A stretch of 64,000 nt of DNA from Magnetococcales bacterium (GCA_015231305.1 JADGBW010000001.1:46190-110189), one strand, 5' to 3'; shown: positions 2,730-22,079, counted from the stretch's first letter. A program made the numbers and translations. The notes: a model not told the origin generated them from the sequence alone.

Positions 2730-2874
2730 ACTTAAATGAAAACACTATAAAACACTCACCTTCTTATATTTTTTTAATTAAACAAAACAAGGTTTTGCAC
2801 CCTTCTAATGTGTGTTATCTTTTAATTAATAAATATTACCAATTAGCATTAAAAGACAGAGAGCTTTAAAGACA

Positions 2875-3360: not shown

Positions 3361-3403
3361 CTGTATAACTATATAGAAAAAGTACATTAAAACGGATTTT
3401 AAA

Positions 3404-4405: not shown

Positions 4406-6282
4406 ACCTCCCTATAACTACCTCCTCCCCTGATATTAAATATGATAACAGCTCTTTACACACGCTGTGTGACTATTTAAATAAGCAATATTCTATATCT
4501 CCAAAACTACTTTTGGTGCAGACTCCTCAAATAGACTTTAAAACTTTTGATCCAAATATTGCCAAAAAAAAAGGATACTATAATTATCCGCCAACAGGTT
4601 TGCAGTATCTATATGAATCTATAAAAGATCTTGGTATTGAAGTACGCATTCTCAACCTAAACCTAGAAATTTTACGCCGTTGCCATGAGTCACCACACTT
4701 TGATCATTCGCAATGGATGGATATCTTAACTACTGAATTAGAAAGTTACCAACCTTCAATTGTAGGTGTCTCTTGCATGTTTGATGTGGGTATAGATGCC
4801 ATGTTAGATATTTTTAAATTATTAAAAAAAGAGAATAATAGAATAGTTATAGCTGGTGGCTTAATTCCTACCCATGAGTGGCAAACCCTTTTAAAGCGAA
4901 AACTGTGTCACTTTGTGGTTGAAGGTGAAGGTGAAAACAAACTACCGTTTTTACTATCCAACTTGTTTAATTGGCAAACTGAAAAAGAGGTTCCTGGAGT
5001 TCATTTTAATTTGGGGGATATACCAGGCGAAAGCCAGGGGCCGAAAGATGTTGTAGAGTTTGATTTTGACTTAATTGAAAGTTACTCACAAATATCAGTT
5101 GAGGAACATTATAAATATGGATCACTAAATCCGTTTGGACGTATGGCAGGTATTGATGACGCACCTTTTAGTGCTATCCAGTTGCACCGCGGATGCCGTG
5201 CTGTTTGCACATTTTGCTCAGTTCACGGCTTAATGGGCAAAGGAGTTAGGCGACGTAAAGTAGCAACAGTTATAGATGAGATGGCTTTTTTAATAGAAAA
5301 AAAGGGTGTTAAACATTTTGAATGGCTAGATGATGATCTGCTTTTTTATAAAAAAGAGTTTCAAGCTTTATTACAAATAATCATTGATAAAAAATGGAAT
5401 ATCACGTGGTCAGCCAATAACGGTCTTATTGTTGCTGCCATTGATGAAAAAACCATGGCACTCATCAAAGATTCCGGATGTATTGGTATAAAGCTCGGTT
5501 TTGAAAGCGGCAACCAAGAGATGCTGCGTAATGTGCAAAAGCCTGGCGGCACACTGGAAAAATACAATAAAGCCTGCAAAATATTAAGCCGCTATCCAGA
5601 AGTATTTACTGGTGCAAATATAATAGTTGGTTTTCCTGATGAATATTTTTTTCAGATGATGGATAGCTTTCTTTTTTATCTGCAAAGCGGTACAGACTGG
5701 GGGGCTTTTAATACCTGTCAAACAGTTCGTGGGGCATCTGCTTTTTCTGATTTTGGTAGCTATTTTGATGCTCAAATGGAAGGTGGAGGCACAAATGTAA
5801 AAAACTTCAATCCTGCTAGACGTGAAGTAAGTGGAGAGGTTGATCTTAAGGTTACAATTCTTAGTGGCTATGATATTTTTAGCATTGACCCAAAAAGTCA
5901 GCCAAGTGAAGAGCAGATCCAAGAGATATGGTTCACTTTTAACCTTTTGGGTAATTTTATTTTTAATAAAAACCTAAAAGCTAATGGTCGAGTTCAAAAT
6001 TTTATTGGTTGGGTTGAAATGGCGCAGATTCCATACCAAACAAATCCGTACATGGCTCTTTTCCTGGGTTTAGCACATCAAATTGCAGAGCGACCAAAAA
6101 TAGCTTTAGAATATTTAGGAAAAACTCGCGAAGTACTTGCAAAAAATCGTTATTGGCAAGGTAGATTTGCAGCATTCGATCTTAACTGGGTAGTGAATGA
6201 TTTCCCCCAAAATCGAGAGGCAACTTTCTTGGTTATGTCTGAGTTACGCCGTAGGGCCGAAAGTTATTTTTCAACGGTATAA
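4402..6282 (+). CDS. B12-binding-domain radical SAM enzyme
   Basis: The N-terminal B12-binding-like region reads PPTGLQYLYESIKDLGIEVRILNLN...PSIVGVSCM. It is followed by HRGCRAVCTFCSV (CxxxCxxC). It is translationally coupled to the upstream SPASM enzyme. Confidence 0.8.
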   Translation: MNLPITTSSPDIKYDNSSLHTLCDYLNKQYSISPKLLLVQTPQIDFKTFDPNIAKKKGYYNYPPTGLQYLYESIKDLGIEVRILNLNLEILRRCHESPHFDHSQWMDILTTELESYQPSIVGVSCMFDVGIDAMLDIFKLLKKENNRIVIAGGLIPTHEWQTLLKRKLCHFVVEGEGENKLPFLLSNLFNWQTEKEVPGVHFNLGDIPGESQGPKDVVEFDFDLIESYSQISVEEHYKYGSLNPFGRMAGIDDAPFSAIQLHRGCRAVCTFCSVHGLMGKGVRRRKVATVIDEMAFLIEKKGVKHFEWLDDDLLFYKKEFQALLQIIIDKKWNITWSANNGLIVAAIDEKTMALIKDSGCIGIKLGFESGNQEMLRNVQKPGGTLEKYNKACKILSRYPEVFTGANIIVGFPDEYFFQMMDSFLFYLQSGTDWGAFNTCQTVRGASAFSDFGSYFDAQMEGGGTNVKNFNPARREVSGEVDLKVTILSGYDIFSIDPKSQPSEEQIQEIWFTFNLLGNFIFNKNLKANGRVQNFIGWVEMAQIPYQTNPYMALFLGLAHQIAERPKIALEYLGKTREVLAKNRYWQGRFAAFDLNWVVNDFPQNREATFLVMSELRRRAESYFSTV

Positions 6283-6289
6283 ATAAAGC

Positions 6290-7021
6290 CTATTTTATAG
6301 AAAACAGTAGATTCATAGTGGAGTCTAAGCGATATTTTTTTGGCATATTGTCCATATTATAAAAACCTTTTTTACCCTGTATATATTGAATAAAACGAGA
6401 TTTATATACTAAGTCATAGCCCAATTTATCATCAATAAAAGACACTAACTCGTTAATATTTAAACAGCGGAAGGGAATTTTTGCATCGTAATAGTTCTCT
6501 ACACTAATAAATGTTGGAACATCACCAATTAAACTGTCGGAAAAAAGAATGTGAGGAGCTTTAAAAGTAGCTAGCTGGCTAAGTAAACCTTGCCAATCAT
6601 CAATATAACGCAAAACACTGCCAAGGTGAATAATATCAACTCTCTCTAAACTTTTAGGTATGGAGTCATGAAAAAATATACGCTTATCCCCTCCATGGCA
6701 CTCTTTTCCAACTTTACATGCAGCAGCATTATCTACCACATGAAATTCAATTTTTATATTATCTGGTAGAGTAGCTGCAACCATGGGAAAACGATCTCCC
6801 AATCCACCACCAAAATCAAGTATCACCACTTTGTTATCACGCTTGCTTGTAGCAGCCAAAAAAGCTAAGGAGTACTCCTCACTAACGGCACCTTGTTCAT
6901 AAGCTTTTTGTACATGACCTTTAGTTTTTTGCAACCATTGCTCACTCTCAAAAACAGCATCTGATCCAGCTTTTGTTTCAGCAAAGGAGTTATATATACC
7001 ACTGAACACTTGAAATGACAT
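6290..7021 (-). CDS. SAM-dependent methyltransferase (resembles the LIC12133/TIGR04325-type O-antigen-cluster family)
   Basis: ILDFGGGLGD is a glycine-rich SAM-binding motif. The N-terminus MSFQVFSGIYNSFAE fits the family. The track start is TTG 7066; ATG 7021 with an upstream GGGAAG is the more likely start. Confidence 0.6.
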   Translation of the reverse strand: MSFQVFSGIYNSFAETKAGSDAVFESEQWLQKTKGHVQKAYEQGAVSEEYSLAFLAATSKRDNKVVILDFGGGLGDRFPMVAATLPDNIKIEFHVVDNAAACKVGKECHGGDKRIFFHDSIPKSLERVDIIHLGSVLRYIDDWQGLLSQLATFKAPHILFSDSLIGDVPTFISVENYYDAKIPFRCLNINELVSFIDDKLGYDLVYKSRFIQYIQGKKGFYNMDNMPKKYRLDSTMNLLFSIK

Positions 7022-7143
7022 TTTGCTTGCTTCCCTATTTTCAACTAGTATTCGACAGTTTTGCAAAAATTGCAGTTTACTGCTAGAATATTAGTAATTT
7101 AAGCTATCTTTTTAATTGAGTAAAATTAGGATTTTGAATTGTT

Positions 7144-8967
7144 TTGAAAATAAAGTCAAAAAACATTGTTGAATATCGGCAATTATATGTACACATCGCT
7201 ACATCAGCCCCAAGAAGCAGCCGTGGCCTAAAAGTTTTATCACCTGCTCCTTATGTTCTAAAATCTTATGTTAACTGGCGACTGCCAACAGATATAAAAG
7301 CAAAAATAAAAATTGATGTAACTATTTTTGACCCTGATGACTCACCAGAGTTAATGGCAACAAAATTACTTGCAGACACACCAGATATTATTGCTTTTTC
7401 TCTATATGTTTGGAACCATCAAGAGACTCTTAAGTGCGCTAAATTAATAAAAAAGAGTCACCCTGAAATCACCATTATCCTTGGCGGCCCCCAAGCTTCT
7501 CCTATAGCTGAGGAATTACTTTCAACAAACTCATTTATCGATATAATTCCTTTTATTACATCTCCTGGTGAGACAATTTTCTACCACTTAATTTCAGCAG
7601 CCATAAACCAAAAACCCCTAACAGATGTAGCGGGGTTAATGTTACGCCTTAAAGACGGCACAGTTGTAAAAACTGCTGAGAAAATTGAACCTTTGGATTT
7701 TAATACCGCGCCATCACCATTTTTAGATGGAACAATCTCCTTTGACGATGACTGTGAATATTTAGCAGTACTGGAGACATCAAGAGGCTGCCCATTTGAT
7801 TGTGGTTACTGTTTTTGGGGTTCAGGTGGCAAGGATATGAACTACTATCCGCAAAAGCGAGTAGAACAAGAGATCGATATTATCTACAGTGAACAACAGA
7901 TAAAACATGTCTACTTTGCTGATGCTGACATATTAATTAGAAAAAATCGCGCAGAATGGATGGTTGACCGCCTACTTAAAAAAGGCAGTGGAACTGGGGT
8001 AAGTTTTGAGCTAGACGCCAGGAATATTACCAAGCCAAAACGAGGGGTGGTTGAAAAACTTGCCAAGCTACCAGATTTTCAATTTGTATTTGCAATTCAA
8101 ACTACAAACCCCGATGCCCTTGAGGCTATAGGTGTCACCCGACCCAGCCCTGAAATTTTTAAAGATAGACTTGAAACACTACGTAGCTGGATTGAAAATG
8201 TAAGTGCTGTGGTTGATATTATGCTCCCCTTACCACAGGACACATTTCAAGGGTTCCGTAAAACCCTAAACGATGTACTAGCTTTAACCCCAACCAGGCT
8301 AGTTTTAAACTATCCGGTATATCTTCTACCTGGTACTCGTTTTTATAATGAAAGAGAGCAACTTGGCCTTATATATCGTAAAGATCCACCTCATCCGGTA
8401 GTGGAAACAATAAATTTTCCTAAAGCTTACGTAAACAGCGCTCTTTTACTTGGTATATGGTGCGAAATTATCACTTACTATCACCCTGCTGCCGGAATAT
8501 TTTTTCATGACCTAACAAAAAATGAACCTAAAACAAAACCCATTGATCGTATGGAAGCCTGGATTAGAGCCATAGAAAAAAAACTACCTTTAATGGAATA
8601 TTGCGACAATCTGGTAGATTTTGCAGTAATATCGGTTGAGAACCTAAATGCCGCAAAAGGGGCCTTATTAAAACGAGCATGTGAACCAAAAAGTGGTTTG
8701 TTGATTTACACAACAATACTAGAAATTGAAACTGGTAGGTTTTCAAACTATACAAAGCCCATACAAGTTGCTGTTTATGTATATAAAAGTGCTGTTGAGT
8801 CTGGCATCACTTGGCTGGATAAGGAAACAATGGAGGCTCTTTTTCCTAAAAGTTATGGAGATTTGGCTTTTAAAAATATACCACCTCGTTTTAAGCCATA
8901 TGAAGATACCGTTGAGGTACAAAAACAAGCTATAAAAACTCTACAAGAGTCAATGCATAGCAACTAA
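7144..8967 (+). CDS. B12-binding-domain radical SAM enzyme
   Basis: The B12-binding-like N-terminus reads ...LLADTPDIIAFSLYVWN...IILGGPQAS. It is followed by TSRGCPFDCGYCFW (CxxxCxxC). The TTG start is uncertain. Confidence 0.75.
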   Translation: MKIKSKNIVEYRQLYVHIATSAPRSSRGLKVLSPAPYVLKSYVNWRLPTDIKAKIKIDVTIFDPDDSPELMATKLLADTPDIIAFSLYVWNHQETLKCAKLIKKSHPEITIILGGPQASPIAEELLSTNSFIDIIPFITSPGETIFYHLISAAINQKPLTDVAGLMLRLKDGTVVKTAEKIEPLDFNTAPSPFLDGTISFDDDCEYLAVLETSRGCPFDCGYCFWGSGGKDMNYYPQKRVEQEIDIIYSEQQIKHVYFADADILIRKNRAEWMVDRLLKKGSGTGVSFELDARNITKPKRGVVEKLAKLPDFQFVFAIQTTNPDALEAIGVTRPSPEIFKDRLETLRSWIENVSAVVDIMLPLPQDTFQGFRKTLNDVLALTPTRLVLNYPVYLLPGTRFYNEREQLGLIYRKDPPHPVVETINFPKAYVNSALLLGIWCEIITYYHPAAGIFFHDLTKNEPKTKPIDRMEAWIRAIEKKLPLMEYCDNLVDFAVISVENLNAAKGALLKRACEPKSGLLIYTTILEIETGRFSNYTKPIQVAVYVYKSAVESGITWLDKETMEALFPKSYGDLAFKNIPPRFKPYEDTVEVQKQAIKTLQESMHSN

Positions 8968-9133
8968 AATTTGCTATGTATTATATTCAAATAGCTATTG
9001 TTGCAACCTAGAGTCTTAACACCTTGTTTTATTCCTCTATTTTTACACTTGCAACCTTGACAATAAACCATCACTCAGTTAACAATTAAGGGCTATCTTT
9101 CTTTAATTAAACTTAAACCTTTAAGAATACTTA

Positions 9134-10816
9134 ATGCGCATTGGCCTTGATTTTGACAATACCCTGGCAGTCTACGATAAACTATTTATTGAGACAGCTA
9201 TGGAAAAAGGATTTATTCCAGAAAACACTACCATAACAACAACTGGTGGTGGTAAAGATATTGTCCGAGGTATGGTTCGCAGCCTTCCTGATGGTGAAGA
9301 TAAGTGGCAGACACTACAAGCTGAAGTATACGGCCCACGTATGTCAAAAGCAGTTTTAATGGATGGTGTCACACTATTTTTAAATGAGGCAGTACGCCAA
9401 AAGGCAGAGCTTTTTATAGTCAGCCATAAAACACAATTTGCTGTTTTTGATCATGAAAAAAAATATGACCTAAGAAAGACAGCACTTGCCTGGATGACTG
9501 AAAAAAAGTTTTTTGCAAAAGATGGTTTTGCCATTCCTAGGCAAAACGTTTTTTTTACCCATACACGTAGTGAAAAAGTAAACCAAATAGCAAAGTTAAA
9601 CTGCGACTATTTTATTGATGACCTACCAGAAGTATTTGCAGACCCTGGTTTTCTTGCTAAAATAGTACAAATTTTAATAGATCCACTTGGAAATGCCGAC
9701 ACCAATGGACCATTTCAACCTTTTTGTGGTTGGGCTGCAATTAACCAAGAAGTATTTGGTGTTCCCATAGTTAAGAGTAATTCTGTTAGTGTTAAGACCG
9801 ATTATGAAGTACTTAGAATTGCAGAAAAACTTACAGGTAATAAAGTAAAATCTTTAGAAACACCGATAAAAGGTGGTAACAACCGTCTTTTTAAAGTGGT
9901 TACAGAAAAAGAAAATTTTGCTCTGAAGTTTTATCTTCACTTACCTGAAGACCCTAGAGATAGACAGGGCACAGAAACCCGCGCACTTTCATTTTTAAAC
10001 AGCCAATCTGTTACTCAGGTTCCCCTTTTATATACCACTGATAAAGAAAACAGATGTTCTATTATGGAGTGGATAGATGGTAGTGCTATTACCACCCCAA
10101 CCACCCCTGACATAGATGCAGTTTTGGCTCTTATAAAGCAACTCCATAAACTAGGAGAAAAACCAGAAGCCATGGGCCTGCCCTTAGCGTCCGCTGCTTG
10201 TCTATCTGGAGCCGCCCTTGAGAGCCAAATAAGCGAGCGCATGTTAAGGCTGGCAATTAATCAAGATAAACACCCAGATCTTGAGCTTTTTATAATTAAC
10301 GATTTTACCCCATTTTTAAACCAAACCATAACCAGTATTAAATCCGCTTTCCAAAACAAGCAATTAGACTTTAACGCTGAAACACAAGTTAAATACAGGG
10401 TTTTAAGCCCATCAGACTTAAGCTTTCCCAACACTCTTCGGCGAATGAATGGTGATGTGGTTTTTCTTGACTTTGAATATTTTGGTTGGGATGACCCTGT
10501 TAAACTAGCATCTGATTTTCTTCTTCACCCCGGCATGCAGATTGCCGATAAAGATAAGGAGAGGTTTATTTGCGAGATAACAAAATTGTTTGATGCAGAC
10601 ACATCATTCAAATTCCGCTTGCAACAACTTTTCCCTCTATTTGGTTTGTGCTGGTGTTTAATTATACTAAATGTATTTCTACCAGAAGGATGGCGAAGAA
10701 GATCTTTTGCTGCCAACCCTGAGGAGAAACAAATTGCCCTTGACAGGCAGCTAGAAAAAGCTCGTAACCTACTTTTATCTCTGCAAAAAAATGGCAGCGG
10801 AATAAAATATGCTTGA
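9134..10816 (+). CDS. Fusion protein: N-terminal HAD-like hydrolase and C-terminal choline/aminoglycoside-kinase-fold phosphotransferase
   Basis: The N-terminus has GLDFDNTLA (HAD DxDxT motif). The C-terminus has SPSDLSFPNTL (catalytic-loop D....N) and FLDFEYFGWDDPVKLASDF (the iDfEy...dp..D motif of choline-kinase-like enzymes). Confidence 0.6.
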   Translation: MRIGLDFDNTLAVYDKLFIETAMEKGFIPENTTITTTGGGKDIVRGMVRSLPDGEDKWQTLQAEVYGPRMSKAVLMDGVTLFLNEAVRQKAELFIVSHKTQFAVFDHEKKYDLRKTALAWMTEKKFFAKDGFAIPRQNVFFTHTRSEKVNQIAKLNCDYFIDDLPEVFADPGFLAKIVQILIDPLGNADTNGPFQPFCGWAAINQEVFGVPIVKSNSVSVKTDYEVLRIAEKLTGNKVKSLETPIKGGNNRLFKVVTEKENFALKFYLHLPEDPRDRQGTETRALSFLNSQSVTQVPLLYTTDKENRCSIMEWIDGSAITTPTTPDIDAVLALIKQLHKLGEKPEAMGLPLASAACLSGAALESQISERMLRLAINQDKHPDLELFIINDFTPFLNQTITSIKSAFQNKQLDFNAETQVKYRVLSPSDLSFPNTLRRMNGDVVFLDFEYFGWDDPVKLASDFLLHPGMQIADKDKERFICEITKLFDADTSFKFRLQQLFPLFGLCWCLIILNVFLPEGWRRRSFAANPEEKQIALDRQLEKARNLLLSLQKNGSGIKYA

Positions 10817-11660
10817 AAACCCTACTACACCGAAACTTATCTACCCAGACACCCCTCCTCTGGACAATCGCTCGAGACAACTTCGTAAGCTTGTTTTACG
10901 AGCAATGGTAGGTGGTGGACGCGGACACCCTGGCTCGGCTCTCTCTTTAATTGAGATTTTACGTTGTCTTTACGATGATATTTTGAATGTAAAAGCCGAT
11001 AAGCCAAATTGGGATAAAAGAGACCGTTGCATATTAAGCAAAGGTCATGGTTGCTTGGCACTTTACGCTATACTCTCTGATAAAAAATTTTTTCCAGCAT
11101 CACAGCTAGATACATTTTGCCACTTCGACTCCATTCTAGGGGGACACCCAGAATGGGGTAAAATTCCTGGAGTTGAGGCATCTACAGGTGCGTTAGGACA
11201 CGGCCTATCTATAGGTGTTGGTCATGCTATTGCAGCTAAGTTACAAAAAAGAAAAAGCCGTTCTATTGTAGTGATGGGTGATGGTGAGATAAATGAAGGC
11301 TCGGTTTGGGAAGCAGCAATGACCGCAGCAAAACACAAATTAGATAACTTAATTGCTGTTATCGATTATAATAAATTACAGTCTTACGGCCCTACAAAGC
11401 AGGTAATGGACATGGAACCCATGACCGACAAATGGCAAGCATTTGGTTTTACTGTTATAGATGTAGATGGGCACAATATGCTTGAGTTAAAAAAAGCATT
11501 TAAAAAACCACCTATTGACGGCAAACCTACTGCTATTATTTGCCATACAATTAAAGGCAAAGGGTTGCCCCCTGCTGAAAACAACCCAACATGGCATCAT
11601 AAATCCCGAATAACACCAGAACAGTTAGAGCAACTGTATCAAGCCCTGGAAGAGAATTAA
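10809..11660 (+). CDS. Transketolase, N-terminal (TPP-binding) subunit of a split transketolase
   Basis: GHPGSALSLIEIL, SKGHGCLALYA, GALGHGLSIGVG and GDGEINEGSVWEA are transketolase N-terminal signatures. It overlaps the upstream gene by 8 nt. Confidence 0.85.
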   Translation: MLENPTTPKLIYPDTPPLDNRSRQLRKLVLRAMVGGGRGHPGSALSLIEILRCLYDDILNVKADKPNWDKRDRCILSKGHGCLALYAILSDKKFFPASQLDTFCHFDSILGGHPEWGKIPGVEASTGALGHGLSIGVGHAIAAKLQKRKSRSIVVMGDGEINEGSVWEAAMTAAKHKLDNLIAVIDYNKLQSYGPTKQVMDMEPMTDKWQAFGFTVIDVDGHNMLELKKAFKKPPIDGKPTAIICHTIKGKGLPPAENNPTWHHKSRITPEQLEQLYQALEEN

Positions 11661-12589
11661 TGCGTAAAACCTCACTTAATTCTGTAACTAAACTAGCCAA
11701 AAAAGATAAGCGAGTCCTGTTTATAGGTTCAGATCTTGGCGCAGGAACAATGGATGAGTTTCGCGAAAGTTATCCTGAGCGTTTTTTTATGGAAGGAATA
11801 GCTGAGCAAAATATGATTGGTATGGCAGCAGGGCTAGCAATGGACGGTTTTATTCCATACCTAAACACAATTGCCAGCTTTATAACCCGCCGTTGTTTAG
11901 AACAAATTACAATTGATTTATGCCTACATAACCTACCTGTTCGGCTGCTAGGTAATGGTGGTGGCTTGGTTTATGCTCCTCTAGGTCCAACTCACCTTGC
12001 ACCTGACGATATCGCCCTTATGCGCGCCTTACCCAACATGACCATTGTTGCTCCATCAGATGCCATGGAGATGCAAGAAATAATGAAGCAAACTTTGGAT
12101 ATTCCTGGGCCTGTTTATATACGCTTGGGTAAAGGTGGAGACCCAGTGGTTTTCCCCAAAGGTGGTAAAACAAAAATTGGTAAGGCTATGCAGCTTCGTG
12201 AGGGACGCCACGCTATTTTTATTTCCACGGGCATCATGACCCATAAAGCTATAGTTACAGCAGATATGTTAGCTAAAAAAGGTCTAGACTGTGCTGTTTT
12301 GCACTGCCATACAATTAAACCCTTAGATGATGAGGCAATATTGTCTGCAGCATCTGATTTTCCTTTAATTATAACACTTGAAGAACATTCACGTGTTGGT
12401 GGGCTTGGAAGTGCAGTGGTAGAGCTACTTGCAGACAACGGCCCCTACCCCAGACTTAAAATTTTACGCCTTGCTCTACCAGATAGTTTTCAAAAAAATT
12501 ATGGCTCTCAAGATGCTCTGTTAGAGGCTGCCGGACTCTACCCCAAAAAGATAGCAAAAACCCTTCTAAACACTATGTTCGGAGCTTAA
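11660..12589 (+). CDS. Transketolase, C-terminal (pyrimidine-binding) subunit
   Basis: ERFFMEGIAEQNMIGMAAGLAMDGFIPY and GPTHLAPDDIALMRALPNMTIVAPSD are the supporting motifs. The start overlaps the previous stop (TAATG). Confidence 0.85.
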   Translation: MRKTSLNSVTKLAKKDKRVLFIGSDLGAGTMDEFRESYPERFFMEGIAEQNMIGMAAGLAMDGFIPYLNTIASFITRRCLEQITIDLCLHNLPVRLLGNGGGLVYAPLGPTHLAPDDIALMRALPNMTIVAPSDAMEMQEIMKQTLDIPGPVYIRLGKGGDPVVFPKGGKTKIGKAMQLREGRHAIFISTGIMTHKAIVTADMLAKKGLDCAVLHCHTIKPLDDEAILSAASDFPLIITLEEHSRVGGLGSAVVELLADNGPYPRLKILRLALPDSFQKNYGSQDALLEAAGLYPKKIAKTLLNTMFGA

Positions 12590-12595
12590 AACATA

Positions 12596-13660
12596 ATGTC
12601 AAAACTTTATAGCAGTTTAAAATTCCTTCGCTTTCATGATCACCTTGAAGCTCTGAAAAACCGCAAAGTCATAGCACCAGTTCATATTCGCATAAAACCA
12701 ACAAACCACTGTAACCATGACTGCTGGTATTGTGCTTATAAAGTAGACCATTTACAGCTTGGTGAAGATATTGTTGAAGCTGACATTATCCCTAAGGAAA
12801 AAATGGTTGAGATTGTTGAAGATATAATAGACATGGGAGTAAAGGCAGTTACATTTTCTGGTGGTGGTGAACCTCTACTATACAAAACATTGCCTGAAAC
12901 AATAGAACGCTTAGCCCAAGGTGGAGTTAAAGTTGCAACTTTAACCAACGGCAGTAATTTAAAAGGTCGCACAGGTGATGCTTTAGCTAAATATGGCACA
13001 TGGGTGCGTATATCAATAGATGCTTGGGATGATGCTAGCTATAACAAAGCACGGGAAATAAAAGGCAACAATTTCAGCCAAATTGTTAGAAACATGAGGG
13101 AATTTGCCGATAAAAAATCACCCTGTGTACTTGGTGTTAGCTTTGTGGTAACAAAAGACAATTATAAACATCTCATTGAGGCCTGCAAAATATTTAAACA
13201 AGCTGGTGTAAACCATGTAAAACTATCTGCTGTTGTTATCTCTAATGATGGCAGAAAAAACAATCAATACCATGGGGAAATTATGAAAGAAGTCTCTGGC
13301 TTAATTACCAAAGCCCAAGAGCTTAACGATGAAAATTTCACCATTATCAATCACTATCACGAACTTGATGAACGGTTTGATAAAACCTACAAAACTTGTT
13401 CATTTCTGCAATTTTTAACAGTTATCGGAGCCGACTGCCAAGTATACTCATGTCAAGATAAAGCCTATAATGATAAGGGGCTGATGGGATCTTTTAAAGA
13501 CCGTTCATTTAAAGATTTTTGGTTTTCCGAAGAGAACTACAAACGGATTTATTCACTTGATCCCACAACTGATTGCAAACATCACTGTGTCTCTCATGGA
13601 AAAAACCTAGCGATTAACGAATTTTTAGATACAGACCCAGATCACGGCCTGTTTGTATAA
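12596..13660 (+). CDS. Radical SAM enzyme
   Basis: CNHDCWYCAY gives CxxxCxxC at aa ~39-46. FSGGGEPLL is also present. The start lies 6 nt after the transketolase C-subunit stop. Confidence 0.75.
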   Translation: MSKLYSSLKFLRFHDHLEALKNRKVIAPVHIRIKPTNHCNHDCWYCAYKVDHLQLGEDIVEADIIPKEKMVEIVEDIIDMGVKAVTFSGGGEPLLYKTLPETIERLAQGGVKVATLTNGSNLKGRTGDALAKYGTWVRISIDAWDDASYNKAREIKGNNFSQIVRNMREFADKKSPCVLGVSFVVTKDNYKHLIEACKIFKQAGVNHVKLSAVVISNDGRKNNQYHGEIMKEVSGLITKAQELNDENFTIINHYHELDERFDKTYKTCSFLQFLTVIGADCQVYSCQDKAYNDKGLMGSFKDRSFKDFWFSEENYKRIYSLDPTTDCKHHCVSHGKNLAINEFLDTDPDHGLFV

Positions 13661-13749
13661 CAAATAAATAAGGTTGGCCTGGTAATGGAGAGCATCCCTT
13701 CCTAGTAGGGTTTAGAGAAAAGCTCCAAGAAAGAAAGAGGAAAAAGAAA

Positions 13750-14424
13750 ATGAAAATGAAAATGAAAAGAGTAGACTTCATATCCGAACTACACACAAAA
13801 ACCAAGCGCAATTATGTTCAAAGAGTAGTAGAACATGACAAAGCCAAATGTGCCGTAAAGGCCAAACAGTGGGACTTTGACTATTGGGACGGAGATAGGC
13901 AATACGGGTATGGTGGTTATAGTTATGACGGCAGATGGTTATCGGTAGCTAAAAAGATGGCAAAACACTACGGCCTAAAAGCCGGTGACCGTATCCTAGA
14001 TGTAGGGTGTGGAAAAGCATTTTTATTATACGAATTCACTCAAGCTGTACCGGGTTGTGAAGTTGTAGGTCTAGATATATCCCCCTACGCAATAAAACAC
14101 GCCAAAGAAGAGGTAGCTCCATTTATAAAAGAGGGCAACGCAACCAACTTACCATTTGAAGATAACAGCTTCGACTTTGTATTCTCCATAACCACACTAC
14201 ACAACTTCCCCTGCTACGATCTAGAAAAAGCATTATCAGAGATAGAACGCGTAGGCAAAGACAAAAAACTAGTAGTTGTGGAGTCCTACCGCAACGAAGA
14301 AGAAAAAGCCAACCTACTATACTGGCAGCTAACCTGCGAATCCTTCTACAAGCCCGACGGCTGGCAATGGTGGTCAGAACATTGTGGCTATAGTGGAGAT
14401 TGGGACTTTATCTTTTTTGAGTAA
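13750..14424 (+). CDS. Class I SAM-dependent methyltransferase
   Basis: ILDVGCGKAFLL is motif I. VVGLDISPYAI and FDFVFSITTLHN follow. The gene is visibly more GC-rich than its neighbours. Confidence 0.75.
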   Translation: MKMKMKRVDFISELHTKTKRNYVQRVVEHDKAKCAVKAKQWDFDYWDGDRQYGYGGYSYDGRWLSVAKKMAKHYGLKAGDRILDVGCGKAFLLYEFTQAVPGCEVVGLDISPYAIKHAKEEVAPFIKEGNATNLPFEDNSFDFVFSITTLHNFPCYDLEKALSEIERVGKDKKLVVVESYRNEEEKANLLYWQLTCESFYKPDGWQWWSEHCGYSGDWDFIFFE

Positions 14425-14537
14425 AATTTCAAAAAGCAGGTATTTTATAAAAAGTAATTACAATAAAATAAAACATAAATAAGAATAGGCTATAAATGGT
14501 TAAAAGCCTAACTCCATATGTAGGTAGGGAAATAAAT

Positions 14538-14760
14538 ATGGACAAAACCATAATAGCAATTAAAGTCCAAGCCTTAAAATTAAATCCAGCGGATCGCCTT
14601 GTTTAGCTAATGCTATTATTAGCAGCCTAGATGAAGTAGATAGTAAAATGGACCGTCTATGTGGTCCAAAGAGGCTGAAGAACGCTTATCTGCCTATAAA
14701 AGAGGTGAGCTAAAGGCTATTTACATGGATAAGGTGCTTGATACACACCTAACACAGTAA
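14538..14760 (+). pseudogene. Frameshifted remnant of a small addiction-module (antitoxin-type) component
   Basis: Three frames together read MDKTIIAIKVQALKLNPADRLV / LANAIISSLDEVDSKMDRL / WSKEAEERLSAYKRGELKAIYMDKVLDTHLTQ*. This matches the ..L..eeR..La..L..SL......W..Ea.rR...y..G layout of the putative addiction-module component family. Two frameshifts are needed, and no partner toxin gene is present. Confidence 0.45.
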
Positions 14761-14834
14761 ACATCTTTTTGCTGTATACTTTTTACACCACCACCAGAAT
14801 AAAAAACTAACAAACTACTAAGTCAAGATTTAAC

Positions 14835-16361
14835 CTACTCCATCAAAGTTTTAATATACCCGAAAATATGGTCCGCTCCTACAGTTTTGCGGTTGCAGAC
14901 TATAGCTACATCTAGGGCTGCGGCTGCGCTGCCTAGAAATAGGGCTAGCTTGGGGTGTATGCCACCGGCTAGGCTTAAACCAGAAAGGGATAGGAATGCG
15001 TCTCCTGCTCCTATACGGTCTACTACGTGGGTGGATAGGGCTGGTATGTCGTGGACTTTTCTGGCATCTAGGTTCAACATTACAGCACCGGTCTGACCCA
15101 TGGTTATGGCGAAGTATTTTGCTTTTACTGCTGCTGCTAGATCATCCGCAATCATGGTTATTGGGTCATGCCTGTTGTGTGAGGCTAGGCGAACCTCTGG
15201 CTCATTTATAGATGCGTAGTCTAAATTAGGATACCTAGTTATTACATGATGCCCCCTGTTACCACTGTTAATTTGAGTATTCACTGCTAAAAATTTGGCT
15301 GAATCACTCAGGGCTGCAACCATGCTGCTTGAGATAAAACCGTTGCCATAATCTGCCACCAAAACCACATCATAATCTTTGGCATTTTGGTTTATCCACT
15401 GACAAATATCAGCGTCTTGCTCAGCAGAAAGAGGTGCGTTATCATAGAGGTACACCTCAAACAATTTATTCATGTTGTTGTCTATGTAACGCTTTTTTAC
15501 CAGAGTCTGCCCTTGGTTAAAATAATAGAAATTTGGCGTTACATTTTCAGCAAGCTTTCCACGTATAAATGTTTCGTGAACATCATCTTTACCTAACCCA
15601 GTTAATAAGGTAACTTCACCTGCAAACTCTGCTAAATGGTTGGCAACAGCAAGTGAGCCTCCAGCAAAAAATTCGTTCGACCCATAATGGACTGAAATAA
15701 TATTTCCACTTTTACCAGTCATACCCATAGGGGTTGAATAACAATATTCATCAACAATTGCTTCTCCAACCACCAATACTTTAAGAGATTTAAGAGCTTT
15801 TACCTGATCAATAATTTCATTTGCAGTGTACTCTTTTTTCAGGCGGTGCAGATAGTTTCTCACACTTGGAGATAGCTCTGCCAAGATATCGTTATCTTCT
15901 TCATCACCTGTAAATGCTGGGTTATCTAAAACAAGTAAACGACCACCAAAAGCTTCTACTGCTTGTTTTTCTTGAACTCTATCTGAGCTATAGCCGTTTT
16001 GATCTGACTCTTTCATGTTAGAAGTAAATAGGAATAAGTCTGGCTGTATTTCCCTGATGATTGCAGCAGCATTGGGAGCATCCAAAATCACTACCCAATC
16101 AACACAAGATAGCTCTGCAACACTCTCTGCTCGCATTGCAACTGAATAAGCTGACTGACTAGGGCTTTGGCTAACAAATCGATCAGTAGCAATGGACACT
16201 ACCAATACGTCACCCTCTTGCCTTGCTTTACGCAGGTTTAAGATATCACCCAGATGTAGAGAGTTGAAAGTACCGTGACAGTAGACTATTTGCCTGTCTT
16301 GACCCTTCAAAAAGCGGATCTTTTGGGCTAACTCATTTTTTGAAATAATTTTTTGTGACAT
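14835..16361 (-). CDS. Bifunctional sugar-phosphate nucleotidyl(cytidylyl/adenylyl)transferase and PfkB-family sugar kinase (HldE/RfaE-like, reversed domain order)
   Basis: The N-terminus has CHGTFNSLHLGDILNLRKARQEGDVLVVSIATD (cytidylyltransferase HxGH-type motif). The C-terminus has VLVVGEAIVDEY...GGSLAVANH...DRIGAGDAFLS (PfkB signature). Confidence 0.75.
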   Translation of the reverse strand: MSQKIISKNELAQKIRFLKGQDRQIVYCHGTFNSLHLGDILNLRKARQEGDVLVVSIATDRFVSQSPSQSAYSVAMRAESVAELSCVDWVVILDAPNAAAIIREIQPDLFLFTSNMKESDQNGYSSDRVQEKQAVEAFGGRLLVLDNPAFTGDEEDNDILAELSPSVRNYLHRLKKEYTANEIIDQVKALKSLKVLVVGEAIVDEYCYSTPMGMTGKSGNIISVHYGSNEFFAGGSLAVANHLAEFAGEVTLLTGLGKDDVHETFIRGKLAENVTPNFYYFNQGQTLVKKRYIDNNMNKLFEVYLYDNAPLSAEQDADICQWINQNAKDYDVVLVADYGNGFISSSMVAALSDSAKFLAVNTQINSGNRGHHVITRYPNLDYASINEPEVRLASHNRHDPITMIADDLAAAVKAKYFAITMGQTGAVMLNLDARKVHDIPALSTHVVDRIGAGDAFLSLSGLSLAGGIHPKLALFLGSAAAALDVAIVCNRKTVGADHIFGYIKTLME

Positions 16362-16393
16362 CGTATCAGTAAAAAATACTCTTTTTAATATTT

Positions 16394-17503
16394 TTAGAAG
16401 GGTCCAACATATGCCGGGTTGGGAATATCACGAAGGGAGGTTCTTCTCACCCTTTTACACATCTCTTGAGTTGGTAATTTTTGCTCGTCATCAACAAGAG
16501 AGACAATAGCTTTAACGATAGTTTCTGCATCAGGGTAGTAGTCGTCTGCAAGATGTTTTGATGTAGGAGCCGGATGGTCTGGAAGGGTAATGCGCATTGG
16601 TGGCTTTTTTAAATATTGAAAAGCATTTTCAACAGTTCTTGCCATTATCTCTCCACTAACACCACAAGAAGCCCAGCCAGTGTCTAGAACCATCAGTAAG
16701 CCTGTTTTTTCTACTGATGCTAAAACTGGGTCCATGTCTAGAGGTCGCACAGACCGCATATCTATAATTTCAACTTCAACCCCATGTTCAGCCAAAACTT
16801 GAGCAGCTGCTATTGCTTCAATGGTCATGTGAGAGAACGTAGCAACTGTTATGTGGCTACCTTTTTTAACAATACTGGCTTTGTCTAAGGGAACAAGATA
16901 TTGCTCTTTTGGTACGTCACCTTTTAAGTTATACAGCCATCTGTGTTCTATGAACATTACTGGGTTATTATCTTTTATAGCACTAAGTAACATACCTTTT
17001 GCATCATATGGTGTTGTAGGCATAACAACTTTTAAACCGGGTATGTGGGCAAAAAGAGATTGTAAACTTTGAGCATGTTGCGGACCCTGCCCCCAACCGC
17101 GTCCAATTAACATCCGCACTACCAACGGTACAGTTACTTGACCATTAAAAACATAATGTAGTTTAGCTGCATTATTTATAAGTTGATCTAAGGATAAAAG
17201 CGCAAAATCTATTCGTTGATGAACCAAAATAGGCCGAAAACCACTCGTAGCCAGCCCAATACATACACCAGTCATACCATTTTCAGCTAATGGCATCTCA
17301 GTTACCCGGTCTGGGCCAAATTTTTCTACAAGACCTTCTGTGGTTCTAAATATTGACTTTGGGTCAGCGACACCTTCACCAATAACCATGATAGATTTAT
17401 CACTCTCCATAGCCTGATACTGGGCCTCTTGGAGAGCTTCGCCAAAGTTAATTTCTCGTATGTTTTTCTCGGTGGAAGCATTATCTATAGTACTACTGGG
17501 CAT
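16394..17503 (-). CDS. 2-oxoacid dehydrogenase E1 component, beta subunit-like (TPP enzyme)
   Basis: INFGEALQEAQYQAMESDKSIMVIGEGV, RVTEMPLAENGMTGVCIGLATSGFRPI and RPLDMDPVLASVEKTG are the supporting motifs. The likely start is ATG 17503 (MPSSTIDNAS), overlapping the alpha-subunit stop. The track start is 17548. Confidence 0.85.
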   Translation of the reverse strand: MPSSTIDNASTEKNIREINFGEALQEAQYQAMESDKSIMVIGEGVADPKSIFRTTEGLVEKFGPDRVTEMPLAENGMTGVCIGLATSGFRPILVHQRIDFALLSLDQLINNAAKLHYVFNGQVTVPLVVRMLIGRGWGQGPQHAQSLQSLFAHIPGLKVVMPTTPYDAKGMLLSAIKDNNPVMFIEHRWLYNLKGDVPKEQYLVPLDKASIVKKGSHITVATFSHMTIEAIAAAQVLAEHGVEVEIIDMRSVRPLDMDPVLASVEKTGLLMVLDTGWASCGVSGEIMARTVENAFQYLKKPPMRITLPDHPAPTSKHLADDYYPDAETIVKAIVSLVDDEQKLPTQEMCKRVRRTSLRDIPNPAYVGPF

Positions 17504-18470
17504 AAGTGAAGTCCCCACTAGTTTGGGGTTTTGGATCAGGGCTAGCAAAGCTAAATTGAAAAGATGCTTCTACCTCTGCTTTTACATTTTCTTCTAAGGT
17601 TGCAAAGTCCTTTTGGCTCCAGCCAAATTTCTGCGTCAACTCTTCGGCTGCTCTTTTCAAAGGACAGCGATCTTCCCTAAACTTTGGAGTTTCATTTGGG
17701 CGATAGCCAAGATCATCATCAAACTCATGGCCAACATGACCAAGCCACCTATATGTTTTAAACTCTAAAAATTGTGGCCCCTCTCCTCTTCTGGCTTTTG
17801 CTACTGCTTCACCAGCCAAGTGTGCAACCTCAACCACATCGTTGCCGTCGCCAGTATAAACCCCCAAGCCATGGGCCTTAGCAACCCCAGATATAGATCT
17901 AATTGGCTGTCTTTCGGCGAGAGGGGTATATACAGACATACCATTATTTTCACAAACAAAAATAGTGGGGATGTTTTTTAAGGCAGCAAAATTCATAGAC
18001 TCATGTAAAACTCCCTCTTCAAAACAGCCGTCTCCAAAAAATACAACAGAGACATGTTCTTCTTGTTTTAATTTAAATGACCACCCCGCACCAACAGCAA
18101 GGGGAACTGTACCACCAACAATAGGTACTGCTCCAGAAAACCCAGCTGCGTTATCTATGAGGTGCATAGACCCCCCCCTACCACCACAGCAACCAGTGGC
18201 TTTACCATATATTTCAGCCATCATTGCATTTAAGTCTCCACCCTTAGCCATATAATGACCGTGTGAACGGTGGTTTCCAAAAACTACATCTGGTGTAGTA
18301 AGGTTAGCACAAACACCTGCGGAAATTGCCTCTTCTCCAATACAAAGATGAACAGGGCAACGCATTTCCTGTTCATGATATCGGTTAGCTATGGCCTCTT
18401 CAGCCCGACGAATCCGTAACATACTATGATACAGAGCAGGCAGATCGATGGTGCTTTCTTCAGTCTTCAC
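17493..18470 (-). CDS. 2-oxoacid dehydrogenase E1 component, alpha subunit-like (TPP-binding)
   Basis: RRAEEAIANRYHEQEMRCPVHLCIGEEA is present. The TPP motif is FFGDGCFEEGVLHESMNFAALKNIPTIFVCENNG. Confidence 0.85.
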   Translation of the reverse strand: MKTEESTIDLPALYHSMLRIRRAEEAIANRYHEQEMRCPVHLCIGEEAISAGVCANLTTPDVVFGNHRSHGHYMAKGGDLNAMMAEIYGKATGCCGGRGGSMHLIDNAAGFSGAVPIVGGTVPLAVGAGWSFKLKQEEHVSVVFFGDGCFEEGVLHESMNFAALKNIPTIFVCENNGMSVYTPLAERQPIRSISGVAKAHGLGVYTGDGNDVVEVAHLAGEAVAKARRGEGPQFLEFKTYRWLGHVGHEFDDDLGYRPNETPKFREDRCPLKRAAEELTQKFGWSQKDFATLEENVKAEVEASFQFSFASPDPKPQTSGDFTYAQ

Positions 18471-19312: not shown

Positions 19313-19343
19313 GCTGATCTAAAACTTAGAATTTCTAGGTTAA

Positions 19344-19374
19344 ACACCGTCCCAATTGGGACGGTGTTTTTTTA
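19344..19374 (+). terminator. Rho-independent terminator of the cold-shock gene
   Basis: ACACCGTCCC-AATT-GGGACGGTGT is a perfect 10-bp stem followed by a T7 run. Confidence 0.8.
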
Positions 19375-19546: not shown

Positions 19547-20773
19547 TTATAGCTTAATTGCTTGGGATATAACCAACTTTAAAGACTTTTTCATATCATG
19601 GTTAAGGCTGAAGGTTTCATATAGATCTTCACTGCACTTATCTCTTTTAGCTGGATCACTCAACAAAGCATCTACTTTTTCGCACATCTCTTCCTGGTCA
19701 TTAAACACTAGAGAGTCTGCATTTTTTTTAAAGTAGTATTCTGAGTCATAGTGACGATAACTAAGAAGGCAGCCAACATTTCTTACAATTTCAATGGGTC
19801 GAGGAAAAAAGCAGGTTTCAAATGTTGTGCTGCCAAAATCAACAGAGACAGGAATATGGTGATATAATAAACCTCTTGCTACTATACTTTGTGTAGGCTC
19901 CGCATCAAGATTATCGGTCATCCAATCGTCACCAATCAATAAAAATTCCTTACCAAACTCTTTTTTCAATCGGTGAACAAACCCTCTTCTGGTTCCTCGA
20001 GCATGATAGTATCTATAAGCTAAAATAACTTGCAAAAATAATCTTGCTTGCTCTGATGGTGGCTTAGAATAAATAAAGGTCCATAACTGATCCATATCAT
20101 AACGAGATAAGGTGGGGTCAGCAATTGCTATTTCTACCATATTTTGAGCTAATAAATCGACTTGTTGATCAATAACTTCAGGCTTTTTAGGCAGTATGCC
20201 CATATATATAATTTTTGCTTGTGATATATTTTTTTTAACATGGTGAGAAGATTTTTTTACCAGCTCCATATAATTGTTAGTTGTGGCTTGTTTAGGCTTT
20301 AACCACTGCATAAATGGATAAGTATGGAGCTTTGATGACAATCCTAATGGAGCAAATATAATAGATTTAAACCCTAAGCGTCGATACTCTAGGGCAGCCT
20401 TTTCACATGGCGACCAAAATAGAATTCGTAAATCTTTTATAACAGCATTTACATGATCAACATCATAGTGCTGCCATAGCTGTTTTAAGTTTTCAACTGG
20501 ATGCCCCCAAGTAACAGATATTATTGGACAGGTTATGTTAAAGCTAGCTACTAGATTTAACACACTTTTTTTAATCTTATCACCAAAAAGGTTTGCAGTA
20601 AAAACCAAGTCGCACTCTTCACCTAGAAGAGTATCTTTTTTGTCGTTCTTGGTATCTTCTAAATAATTATTTTCAAGGTGCAGCATATAAACATCATGGC
20701 CTAACCCTAACAACTCACCTTGTAGTGAGTAGAAAAAATCATACAGACCATTAGTAACAATTAAAATCCGCAT
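19547..20773 (-). CDS. CgeB-like putative glycosyltransferase, tandem paralogue 1
   Basis: It aligns by eye along its full length with the ORF at 20847-22079. The C-terminus (FLLIGDDW...LYHHIPVSVDFGS...FFPRPIEIVRNVGCLLSY) resembles the CgeB/Glyco_trans_1_2 pattern. Confidence 0.45.
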   Translation of the reverse strand: MRILIVTNGLYDFFYSLQGELLGLGHDVYMLHLENNYLEDTKNDKKDTLLGEECDLVFTANLFGDKIKKSVLNLVASFNITCPIISVTWGHPVENLKQLWQHYDVDHVNAVIKDLRILFWSPCEKAALEYRRLGFKSIIFAPLGLSSKLHTYPFMQWLKPKQATTNNYMELVKKSSHHVKKNISQAKIIYMGILPKKPEVIDQQVDLLAQNMVEIAIADPTLSRYDMDQLWTFIYSKPPSEQARLFLQVILAYRYYHARGTRRGFVHRLKKEFGKEFLLIGDDWMTDNLDAEPTQSIVARGLLYHHIPVSVDFGSTTFETCFFPRPIEIVRNVGCLLSYRHYDSEYYFKKNADSLVFNDQEEMCEKVDALLSDPAKRDKCSEDLYETFSLNHDMKKSLKLVISQAIKL

Positions 20774-20846
20774 TATCCTTTTTTCTCATGTAAAAAAATT
20801 GTGACTCAAAAATAGTAAATACATTTATTTTAACCTTGGTTTAACC

Positions 20847-22079
20847 TTAAGAATAGAGCTTCATTGCATGATCTATTACTTTTTTTAGAGATCGTACCAT
20901 CCCTTGTTGTTGGCTAAATGTGTTAAGAATATTATGCCGATAAATATCTCTTTCTTGTTTATTATTCAACAAAAAATCAATTTTTTCACACATATCATCA
21001 GCATCATCAAAAACAAGAGATTTTACATTTTCTTGAAAAAATTGTTCAGAGTCATAGCGACGATAACTTAAAAGACAACCGATATTTTTTACTATTTCAA
21101 TAGGACGAGGGAAAAAGCTAGTTTCAAAAGATATACTACCAAGATCAATTGAAACAGGAACATGGTGGTACAATACCCCCCTTGTTTGCAGGGATTGGCT
21201 TGGCTCAGCTTCAAGGTTATCTGCTATCCAATCATCTCCAAACAGTAAAAATTGGTTACCAAACTCCTTTTTTAAGCGTCTTACAAAAACTCTTCTGGTT
21301 CCTCTAGCATGATAATATCTAAATACTTCGGCTATGGTAAAAAAATCTCTAGGTCGCTGTCTTGGTTCTACGGAGGAAATGTATGACCACAATTTATCAA
21401 TATCAGCCCGTGATAATTTAGGGTCAGCAATCGTTGCTTCAGCTAATGTTCTGGATAATAAATCAATTTTTGGGTCTATGTTTTCTGGTTTTGCAGGCAA
21501 TATACCTAGGTAAATTATTTTAGTGTTGGAAATATCTTTTTCAGGGGGAGGGTTGGTTTGCTTAATATAATCTTGAAATACTTGAGGGTTGGCTTCATGA
21601 GGTTTTTTCCAACAAAAAAATGGAAATGTTTGCATCTTGTCAGAGTAACCAAGTGGAGCAAAGACTATAGATTCAAACCCCAAAGCAAGATACTCTTGAG
21701 TTGCTTTTTCACATGGTGACCAAAATAAAATTTTAAGATTTTTAATAATGTCGTTTGTTATTTTAGAGTTATATTTTTTCCATAACTCTGATATCTCTTC
21801 AACAGGATGCCCCCAAGTGATAGATATAATAGGACAATTGACATTAAAACGAGCAAGGATATCTAATATTTTTGGATCTTCATTAGTTTCAAAAATATTA
21901 GCTGTTATAACAAGATCACAATCAGCACCAGATAGAGCCTCTTTTTTAATATTTGCGCTGTTGTCCAAATACATCGGCTCTAGATGCACCATATAAACTT
22001 CATGGCCTAATAGCAGAAGTTCGGTTTGAAGAGAGTAAAAGTATTCGTACAACCCCGCCGTTATGACCAGAACTCGCAT
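20847..22079 (-). CDS. CgeB-like putative glycosyltransferase, tandem paralogue 2
   Basis: MRVLVITAGLYEYFYSLQTELLLLGHEVYMVHLE compares with MRILIVTNGLYDFFYSLQGELLGLGHDVYMLHLE in paralogue 1. Shared blocks are WGHPVE, ILFWSPCEKA, YYHARGTRR, RLKKEFG and FFPRPIEIV. Confidence 0.45.
   Translation of the reverse strand: MRVLVITAGLYEYFYSLQTELLLLGHEVYMVHLEPMYLDNSANIKKEALSGADCDLVITANIFETNEDPKILDILARFNVNCPIISITWGHPVEEISELWKKYNSKITNDIIKNLKILFWSPCEKATQEYLALGFESIVFAPLGYSDKMQTFPFFCWKKPHEANPQVFQDYIKQTNPPPEKDISNTKIIYLGILPAKPENIDPKIDLLSRTLAEATIADPKLSRADIDKLWSYISSVEPRQRPRDFFTIAEVFRYYHARGTRRVFVRRLKKEFGNQFLLFGDDWIADNLEAEPSQSLQTRGVLYHHVPVSIDLGSISFETSFFPRPIEIVKNIGCLLSYRRYDSEQFFQENVKSLVFDDADDMCEKIDFLLNNKQERDIYRHNILNTFSQQQGMVRSLKKVIDHAMKLYS

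Follow-up and report, generated by a model that had tools for sequence, protein, structure and literature searches.

A split transketolase-like pair and an E1 alpha/beta pair without E2/E3 genes in a probable surface-glycan island of a Magnetococcales bacterium

Two thiamine diphosphate enzyme pairs in convergent operons

The 64,000-nt stretch of DNA analysed here (the window, across which all positions are counted) comes from a metagenome-assembled genome (MAG) of a Magnetococcales bacterium and carries two pairs of genes for enzymes of the thiamine diphosphate (ThDP) type: a transketolase (TK)-like pair split into N- and C-terminal subunits (TK-N and TK-C), and an alpha/beta pair of the kind that forms the E1 component of pyruvate dehydrogenase (PDH). 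When we searched all open reading frames (ORFs) of at least 80-90 amino acids against Pfam and NCBIfam, the ORF map and the Pfam matches confirmed the split TK pair at 10809-12589 and the E1 alpha and beta genes at 16394-18470 on the minus strand, both of which had been noticed in a first-pass annotation of this DNA. The 11-nt overlap that it had reported between the E1 genes can be read directly, with the ATG of E1 beta at 17503-17501 and the TAG of E1 alpha at 17495-17493; the NCBI annotation gives E1 alpha as a protein of 309 amino acids whose start lies 16 codons after the GTG that we use. E1 alpha matches a protein from a Magnetococcales MAG at 100% identity. The two systems sit in convergent operons, TK on the plus strand and E1 on the minus strand (Table 1). 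TK-N overlaps TK-C by 1 nt and the preceding gene, a phosphatase-kinase fusion, by 8 nt, and the E1 operon runs from E1 alpha through E1 beta to the gene of an HldE-like protein. A promoter-like site lies before the E1 operon (18549-18521) and a terminator-like hairpin after it (14668-14649), although neither such sites nor such hairpins are commoner than in shuffled sequences. In comparisons with two related MAGs (loci L009 and L010 in our numbering; 83-94% identity), the ratio of nonsynonymous to synonymous substitution rates (dN/dS) was 0.025-0.085 for all four ThDP-enzyme genes (0.06-0.085 for E1 alpha), and this strong purifying selection indicates that the TK and E1 genes are real and functional.

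The TK-like pair combines a conserved catalytic core with a remodelled acceptor pocket. The closest match of TK-N among Protein Data Bank (PDB) sequences is 6yak, the split TK of Carboxydothermus hydrogenoformans (E = 1e-70, about 50% identity), while TK-C matches 6yaj (E = 4e-60). TK-N keeps the GHPG, SKGHG, GGHPE, GDG..N and WHH motifs, which include the ThDP motif and the donor-site histidines, and has GALGHG in place of GxLGQG. When we compared TK-C with human TK, R318 and the catalytic E366 (IAEQN) were kept, whereas five positions were changed (S345G, H416G, D424L, Q428H and R474K). The pair thus has what a canonical transketolase (EC 2.2.1.1) needs for ThDP, the catalytic glutamate and the donor but lacks its acceptor and phosphate residues, and since these are replaced in TK-C we conclude that it is not a standard pentose-phosphate enzyme. 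The orthologs of loci L006-L010 share the TK-C motif G[NS]GGGxVYAPLGPTH, and the acceptor-pocket His and Asp are also missing from other split TKs of glycan clusters. TK-C is also near DXS, against which it scores well. A DXS-like, pyruvate-using TK was nevertheless rejected as the leading interpretation, because TK-N has the donor-site histidines and lacks those DXS features that could be checked.

In alignments to human PDH E1, the ThDP motif GDG...ENN and the histidine that corresponds to human alpha-His263 (LGH) are kept in E1 alpha, and beta-Glu59 and beta-His128 are kept in E1 beta, for which human PDH E1 beta was the best-scoring PDB sequence (E = 2e-71). Against the curated NCBIfam models, E1 alpha reached 275 bits with PDH_E1_alph_y, under the cut-off of 393.85, and E1 beta reached 316.4 bits, under the cut-off of 321. 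The first-pass annotation had described the pair as standing without a nearby lipoyl-acyltransferase (E2) or dihydrolipoamide dehydrogenase (E3); in agreement with this, the scanned ORFs across the window gave no match to a lipoyl/2-oxoacid_dh (E2) or Pyr_redox (E3) domain, and neither of the E2/E3 signature motifs DHR..DG and C.N.GC.P[ST]K occurs in 80 related E1 loci. Within the window and these loci, the pair thus lacks the E2/E3 partners of a canonical E1 of PDH, branched-chain 2-oxoacid dehydrogenase (BCKDH) or acetoin dehydrogenase, and it falls short of the curated family score. It has features of its own. The clade to which it belongs is marked by the motifs Q[EQ]MRCP[MV]H and FGDGCFEE, and E1 beta ends in a C-terminal tail of about 35 extra residues (16394-16500), which closes with the motif D.P...[FY].GPF, is conserved across 79 orthologs (L001-L088) and is absent from PDH E1 beta. 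This GPF tail may close the active site or cover the surface used for E2 binding. Five loci (L013, L032, L054, L085 and L086) encode E1 alpha and E1 beta as a single fusion protein of about 690 amino acids.

The fusion protein encoded directly before TK-N consists of a HAD-type phosphatase (residues 1 to about 215) and a small-molecule kinase of the aminoglycoside phosphotransferase (APH)/choline-kinase fold (about 230-560). Pfam assigned no family to the HAD domain, and a profile search against PDB sequences gave no match for it; we assign it because none of the HAD motifs, DxDxT (D6, D8, T10), S97-H98-K99, K148 and D162-D163, varies among 40 homologs and because PF00702 is annotated on one homolog, P0282. 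An AlphaFold2 (AF2) model of the fusion had a mean confidence (pLDDT) of 89.5 when built from a 40-sequence alignment, compared with 37 from single-sequence input, and a Foldseek search with the former recovered the choline kinase LicA (E = 1e-9), NahK, APHs and methylthioribose (MTR) kinase.

In the HldE-like protein the domain order is reversed, with a cytidylyltransferase-like N-terminus and a PfkB kinase C-terminus. Its best NCBIfam match is HldE, at 129 bits against a cut-off of 521. The kinase GAGD motif is kept, and the nucleotidyltransferase motifs are altered (FD..HxGH to FN..HLGD, NKGPGRP to SQSPSQS and FSSS to FTGD), a state that we found only in the window, L009 (2223-3749) and L010 (12116-13642), whereas more than 60 orthologs keep the canonical motifs. 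A decaying pseudogene was rejected as an explanation, given a dN/dS of 0.05-0.08 for the altered domain (0.03-0.05 for the whole gene). The set that marks an ADP-heptose pathway, an active kinase and nucleotidyltransferase together with GmhA, is incomplete in the window. Between its HldE-like and methyltransferase genes, L010 has an additional gene (13791-16058) for a protein of 755 amino acids with tetratricopeptide repeat (TPR), B12-binding and radical S-adenosylmethionine (radical-SAM) domains; the corresponding interval in the window is only a gap of 410 bp (14424-14835).

Table 1. Genes of the two operons and their surroundings in the window, with the evidence for each assignment
Feature	Position	Strand	Evidence or remark
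TPR-glycosyltransferase	678-2729	+	Pfam/NCBIfam
WbuC-family cupin	2875-3360	+	TIGR04366, 95.7 bits, exceeds cut-off
Radical-SAM SPASM enzyme	3404-4405	+	Pfam/NCBIfam
B12-radical-SAM enzyme	4402-6282	+	Pfam/NCBIfam
Methyltransferase, TIGR04325 (LIC12133-type)	6290-7066	-	NCBIfam
KedN5-like B12-radical-SAM C-methyltransferase	7144-8967	+	Pfam/NCBIfam
HAD phosphatase-kinase fusion, 560 aa	9134-10816	+	Invariant motifs, AF2, Foldseek
TK-N, 283 aa	10809-11660	+	Pfam Transketolase_N 2.9e-46
TK-C, 309 aa	11660-12589	+	Transket_pyr 4.7e-30, Transketolase_C 5.1e-24
Radical-SAM enzyme (twitch/SPASM-like), 354 aa	12596-13660	+	Radical_SAM 1.8e-26, weak SPASM match
Class I SAM methyltransferase, final TK-operon gene	13750-14424	+	Pfam Methyltransf_11/25/31
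HldE-like protein	14835-16361	-	Pfam CTP_transf_like, PfkB
E1 beta	16394-17503	-	Transket_pyr 8.6e-35, Transketolase_C 1.2e-30
E1 alpha, 325 aa, GTG start	17493-18470	-	Pfam E1_dh 8.1e-62
CspA-type cold-shock gene, 70 aa	19100-19312	+	Strong terminator 19342-19369, 12-bp stem
Glycosyltransferase, Glyco_trans_1_2	19547-20773	-	PF13524
Glycosyltransferase, Glyco_trans_1_2	20847-22079	-	PF13524

The genes on either side of the two operons are in part shared with related genomes. In L006, another Magnetococcales locus, the TK cassette is likewise flanked by the left-arm genes (678-8967), and the arrangement of the two Glyco_trans_1_2 genes (19547-22079), which are separated from the E1 operon by the cold-shock gene and by the long AT-rich region that precedes the operon, is syntenic in L010. 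The WbuC cupin and the TIGR04325 methyltransferase belong to families typical of O-antigen or nonulosonic-acid loci. At a distance from the cluster we also observed a gene for a TPR protein of 821 amino acids with a GT41 (O-GlcNAc-transferase-like) domain (43768-46233, minus strand) and a sulfotransferase gene (55783-56589, plus strand).

Distribution and gene neighbourhoods of the two modules

A motif-pattern scan of one genome per GTDB species gave at least 526 loci of the E1 clade. Its carriers include Magnetococcales, Nitrospira, Nitrosomonadaceae, several cultured Methylomonas, Methylobacter, Gallionella, Polaromonas, Herbaspirillum, Propionivibrio, Chloroflexota, Planctomycetota and Elusimicrobia, among others. 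We read the neighbourhoods of 80 of these loci, taking 10 kb as the limit of proximity, and all 80, from many phyla, lie in a glycan context. An HldE-like ortholog was present in 61-64 loci (64 in the count within 10 kb, and directly upstream of E1 in 40), an extended short-chain dehydrogenase/reductase (SDR) in 61, a GmhA-like SIS gene in 53, and one or two SPASM/twitch radical-SAM genes in 54. The usual order is radical SAM, SDR, SIS, HldE-like, E1 alpha, E1 beta, a small protein and a second radical SAM, followed by glycosyltransferases and, in some loci, Wzm/Wzt; DegT aminotransferase genes are also found among the neighbours, and in the nearest relatives of the window pair the genes after E1 alpha/beta encode a DegT aminotransferase and an SDR. 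The SDR of L013, a GDP-fucose synthase, is atypical among those of the module. In Magnetococcus sp. DMHC-6 the module adjoins two flagellin genes, flgK, flgL and fliW.

TK relatives are widespread as well, a metagenome scan having given at least 589 loci that encode them. Neighbourhoods were counted in the 42 loci with a length of 6 kb or more, where the TK pair is directly preceded by a HAD domain in 39 and by an APH-type kinase in 38; an HldE-like gene is a neighbour in 32, a GmhA-like SIS gene in 22 and an ortholog of the window methyltransferase (13750-14424) in 21. An extended SDR lies immediately upstream in 22 of the 27 long loci, and an RmlD-like reductase or two DegT genes lie immediately downstream. 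E2/E3 motifs were absent from the 80 TK loci scanned. In Paramagnetospirillum caucaseum the cassette is accompanied by Maf-like (MptE-like) and CMP-sugar genes, and in a 5-Mb genome by Wzm/Wzt. Orthologs of the radical-SAM gene that follows the pair in the window do the same in L006, L008, L009, L010, L115 and L123.

When the two sets of loci are compared, the E1 and TK modules prove to be independent in distribution. A TK pair is found near E1 in only 6 of the 80 E1 loci, the other 74 having none within 10 kb, and no ORF of the TK loci had E1 alpha or beta as its best match. Each module normally has its own set of HldE-like, SIS and SDR genes, and the lineage of the window joins both around one HldE-like gene; this merged arrangement recurs in L009 and L010, where the compared genes had dN/dS values of 0.02-0.09. 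The first-pass view of two independent ThDP systems in a sugar cluster is thus upheld, in that both are accessory enzymes of glycan clusters whose modules almost always occur apart. Its further suggestion that TK feeds E1 branching finds little favour in these counts, since most E1 modules do without TK. Orthologs of the methyltransferase of the TK operon also occur in 13 of the 80 E1 loci, and in L037, from a gammaproteobacterial MAG, E1 alpha and E1 beta are followed by a radical-SAM gene of the window type (53% identity) and then the methyltransferase (39%), all within 6584-10489. Because these two genes follow E1 there and not TK, the two ThDP enzymes occupy equivalent slots, and the radical-SAM enzyme and methyltransferase can partner either of them.

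Proposed roles and competing explanations

On balance, and with modest confidence, we favour the explanation that two separately evolving ThDP modules have been merged in one surface-glycan island. The region is probably such an island, serving flagellin, another protein or a cell-surface glycan, and each ThDP enzyme probably adds two-carbon pieces to unusual sugars. From the gene content and contexts described above we infer the donors, acceptors and products as follows. The context of the E1 pair fits an acetyl-branching enzyme of the AviB1/B2 type (alphaKADH2) acting on a heptose-type sugar. Working without E2/E3, E1 alpha/beta would decarboxylate pyruvate to hydroxyethylidene-ThDP and pass the acetyl equivalent to the keto group of a heptose-type sugar made by the GmhA/HldE paralogs, and the resulting two-carbon (C2) branch, acetyl or hydroxyethyl, could then be elaborated by neighbouring radical-SAM, reductase or aminotransferase enzymes. 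The role of two-carbon brancher that the first-pass annotation had suggested for E1 therefore agrees with this context (GmhA-like, HldE-like, SDR, aminotransferase and glycosyltransferase genes), which also links E1 to a heptose-type route of activation.

The TK-like pair, for its part, would form dihydroxyethyl-ThDP from a ketose or hydroxypyruvate donor, and the acceptor of its glycolaldehyde unit would be non-canonical. We see two possible outcomes. Because the pair is linked to a kinase, a phosphatase and an isomerase, it may make an unusual ketose phosphate, which would be activated by kinase, phosphatase and HldE-like steps; alternatively, it may place a hydroxyacetyl branch on a keto sugar, as suggested by the flanking SDR, reductase and aminotransferase genes, by its equivalence in slot with E1 and by the proposal made for miharamycin (PMC12247030).

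Several observations weigh against the explanation that we favour, or at least leave gaps in it. Both outcomes of the TK step stand as candidate roles. Since the nucleotidyltransferase motifs of the HldE-like protein are changed, nucleotide activation is not accounted for in the window. No SDR/dehydratase, GmhA-like (SIS) or DegT gene is found within the window, so that either a radical-SAM oxidation or genes elsewhere would have to provide the keto-sugar acceptor; where most E1 loci have an extended SDR that could form a keto sugar, the only candidates in the window are radical-SAM enzymes. The window also has no flagellin or export gene that would point to the target glycan.

The strongest competitor holds that the TK-like pair is an ordinary split TK dedicated to supplying sedoheptulose-7-phosphate, or a larger ketose phosphate, to the heptose route, and that the branch is added by E1. 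The close relation of TK-N to a functional split TK, with its donor-site histidines kept, is what this explanation would predict, as is the linkage of the cassette to GmhA-like, HldE-like, kinase and phosphatase genes, all of sugar-phosphate enzymes. However, the orthologs share with TK-C the residues G, G, L and K in place of S345, H416, D424 and R474 of human TK, and a dedicated supply of sedoheptulose-7-phosphate would need no additional APH-type kinase. Moreover, most of the 74 E1 loci that have no TK pair do have GmhA-like and HldE-like genes, so that sedoheptulose-7-phosphate from central metabolism is evidently enough there. With the acceptor and phosphate pocket remodelled and a HAD and APH-type kinase cassette of its own, a plain supplier of this kind, as the first-pass annotation had envisaged, seems unlikely to us.

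We think it less probable still, and quite improbable in absolute terms, that the kinase-TK cassette disposes of or recycles the 5-deoxyribose derived from the 5'-deoxyadenosine of the four radical-SAM enzymes of the island, by way of an MtnK-like kinase and transketolase and, for example, towards products of the 7-deoxysedoheptulose type. The island is indeed rich in radical-SAM genes, the kinase domain is folded like small-molecule kinases and anomeric sugar kinases, MTR kinase and NahK among them, and D424L would suit an acceptor with fewer hydroxyls; a Synechococcus transketolase converts 5-deoxyribose to 7-deoxysedoheptulose (PMC8102628). Yet radical-SAM genes are missing from the surroundings of most of the TK loci examined, where HldE-like, SIS, SDR, DegT and reductase genes are found instead; neither a nucleosidase nor an MtnA-type isomerase was found, and the kinase has no NCBIfam match to MtnK.

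Finally, a catabolic or housekeeping E1 of a 2-oxoacid or acetoin dehydrogenase that uses distant E2/E3, beside a pentose-phosphate TK and with an incidental position among sugar genes, would agree with the PDB matches to true PDH E1 subunits, the two reductive-acetylation histidines and the near-threshold score of E1 beta, but it is very improbable in view of the glycan context without E2/E3 motifs in every E1 locus read, the score of E1 alpha far under its equivalog cut-off, the motifs, GPF tail and fused alpha-beta forms of the clade and the non-canonical acceptor pocket of TK.

Returning to the merger of two ThDP modules, a bolder version would have the E1 module and the TK cassette be two widespread and hitherto undescribed routes by which a seven-carbon (C7) heptose-type precursor and a ThDP-delivered C2 unit give branched or carbocyclic nine-carbon (C9) surface sugars, the lineage of the window combining acetyl and glycolaldehyde transfer in one glycan. 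We regard this as a speculation that is unlikely to hold. Caryose is a 4,8-cyclo-nonose, and one possibility for a C9 product would be a caryose-like sugar, formed by an acetyl branch at C4 followed by radical closure of the ring between C7 and C8.

Comparison with known systems and significance

Pairs of the alphaKADH2 type (AviB1/B2, Pau11/12, the aldgamycin pair and, in vitro, KbDH) add acetyl branches to keto sugars (PMC12247030, PMC4425429, PMC10338323). When we compared the window E1 by architecture and context with AviB1/AviB2 of avilamycin, Pau11/Pau12 of paulomycin, EvdU5/EvdS3 of everninomicin, the aldgamycin pair and KbDH-alpha/beta of kibdelomycin, it resembled them in having separate alpha and beta subunits, intact ThDP machinery, no E2/E3 and a place in a sugar cluster, which in the related loci contains SDR, aminotransferase and reductase genes; by analogy, the expected chemistry, transfer of a pyruvate-derived C2 unit onto a keto sugar, would be alike as well. 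In contrast, the substrates of the known pairs are deoxyhexose or pentose units in secondary metabolites of Actinobacteria, whereas the window E1 clade belongs to clusters for cell-surface glycans in Proteobacteria, Nitrospirota, Chloroflexota and others, is coupled to GmhA/HldE-like activation and two SPASM radical-SAM enzymes, and has its own motifs, GPF tail and occasional fusion.

For miharamycin and amipurimycin, hydroxyacetyl branching by split-gene TKs has been proposed, with 13 putative members, all from Streptomycetes and none characterised in vitro (PMC12247030). Our likening of the window pair to these rests on gene context: both have split N and C genes in a sugar-modifying cluster beside possible keto-forming oxidoreductases, the latter in the related loci and not in the window. 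The window TK clade differs in its occurrence in Gram-negative and environmental bacteria and in its fixed HAD phosphatase and APH-type kinase, usually with GmhA/HldE-like genes, a linkage which points to at least partly sugar-phosphate chemistry. With canonical TK, including the split enzyme of Carboxydothermus hydrogenoformans, the pair shares its fold, split architecture, ThDP motif, catalytic Glu and donor-site histidines, and it departs from it in the changed acceptor and phosphate residues, in GALGHG and in its context of glycan synthesis.

The likeness to the ADP-heptose pathway is also partial. In related loci the isomerase and the kinase/nucleotidyltransferase match GmhA and HldE best, and the HAD phosphatase could play the part of GmhB. 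All of these matches, however, score far under their equivalog cut-offs, and the HldE-like proteins have their domains in reverse order. In the window a GmhA-like gene is absent, and the HldE-like protein no longer has the nucleotidyltransferase motifs HxGH, KGPxRP and SS. The role that we propose for the E1 pair, ThDP-dependent C-branching of a keto sugar of a Gram-negative surface polysaccharide, is that of YerE-type flavoenzymes, which branch lipopolysaccharide sugars such as yersiniose, but YerE belongs to the acetolactate-synthase-like decarboxylase family and is a single chain with FAD, and no such gene is present here.

A 2025 review gives secondary metabolites as the source of E1-type branchers and lipopolysaccharide as that of YerE-type enzymes (PMC12247030), and our literature search returned nothing relevant on transketolase in flagellin glycosylation islands or on heptose combined with radical SAM and thiamine. 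E1-type C-branching has so far been known only from actinomycete antibiotics, and split-TK branching has only been proposed, in 13 Streptomyces clusters. ThDP sugar branchers as a kind are known; new in relation to the 2025 review is that E1 and TK form large clades whose genes lie in surface-glycan clusters across many phyla and are coupled there to paralogs of GmhA/HldE and to radical-SAM enzymes. The TK clade offers a way to test the proposed idea of transketolase branching, and the two clades offer candidate ketone-accepting carboligases that would be of interest for tertiary-alcohol biocatalysis. The cultured carriers Methylomonas, Herbaspirillum, Propionivibrio and Paramagnetospirillum are tractable hosts in which new branched or extended sugars may be found.

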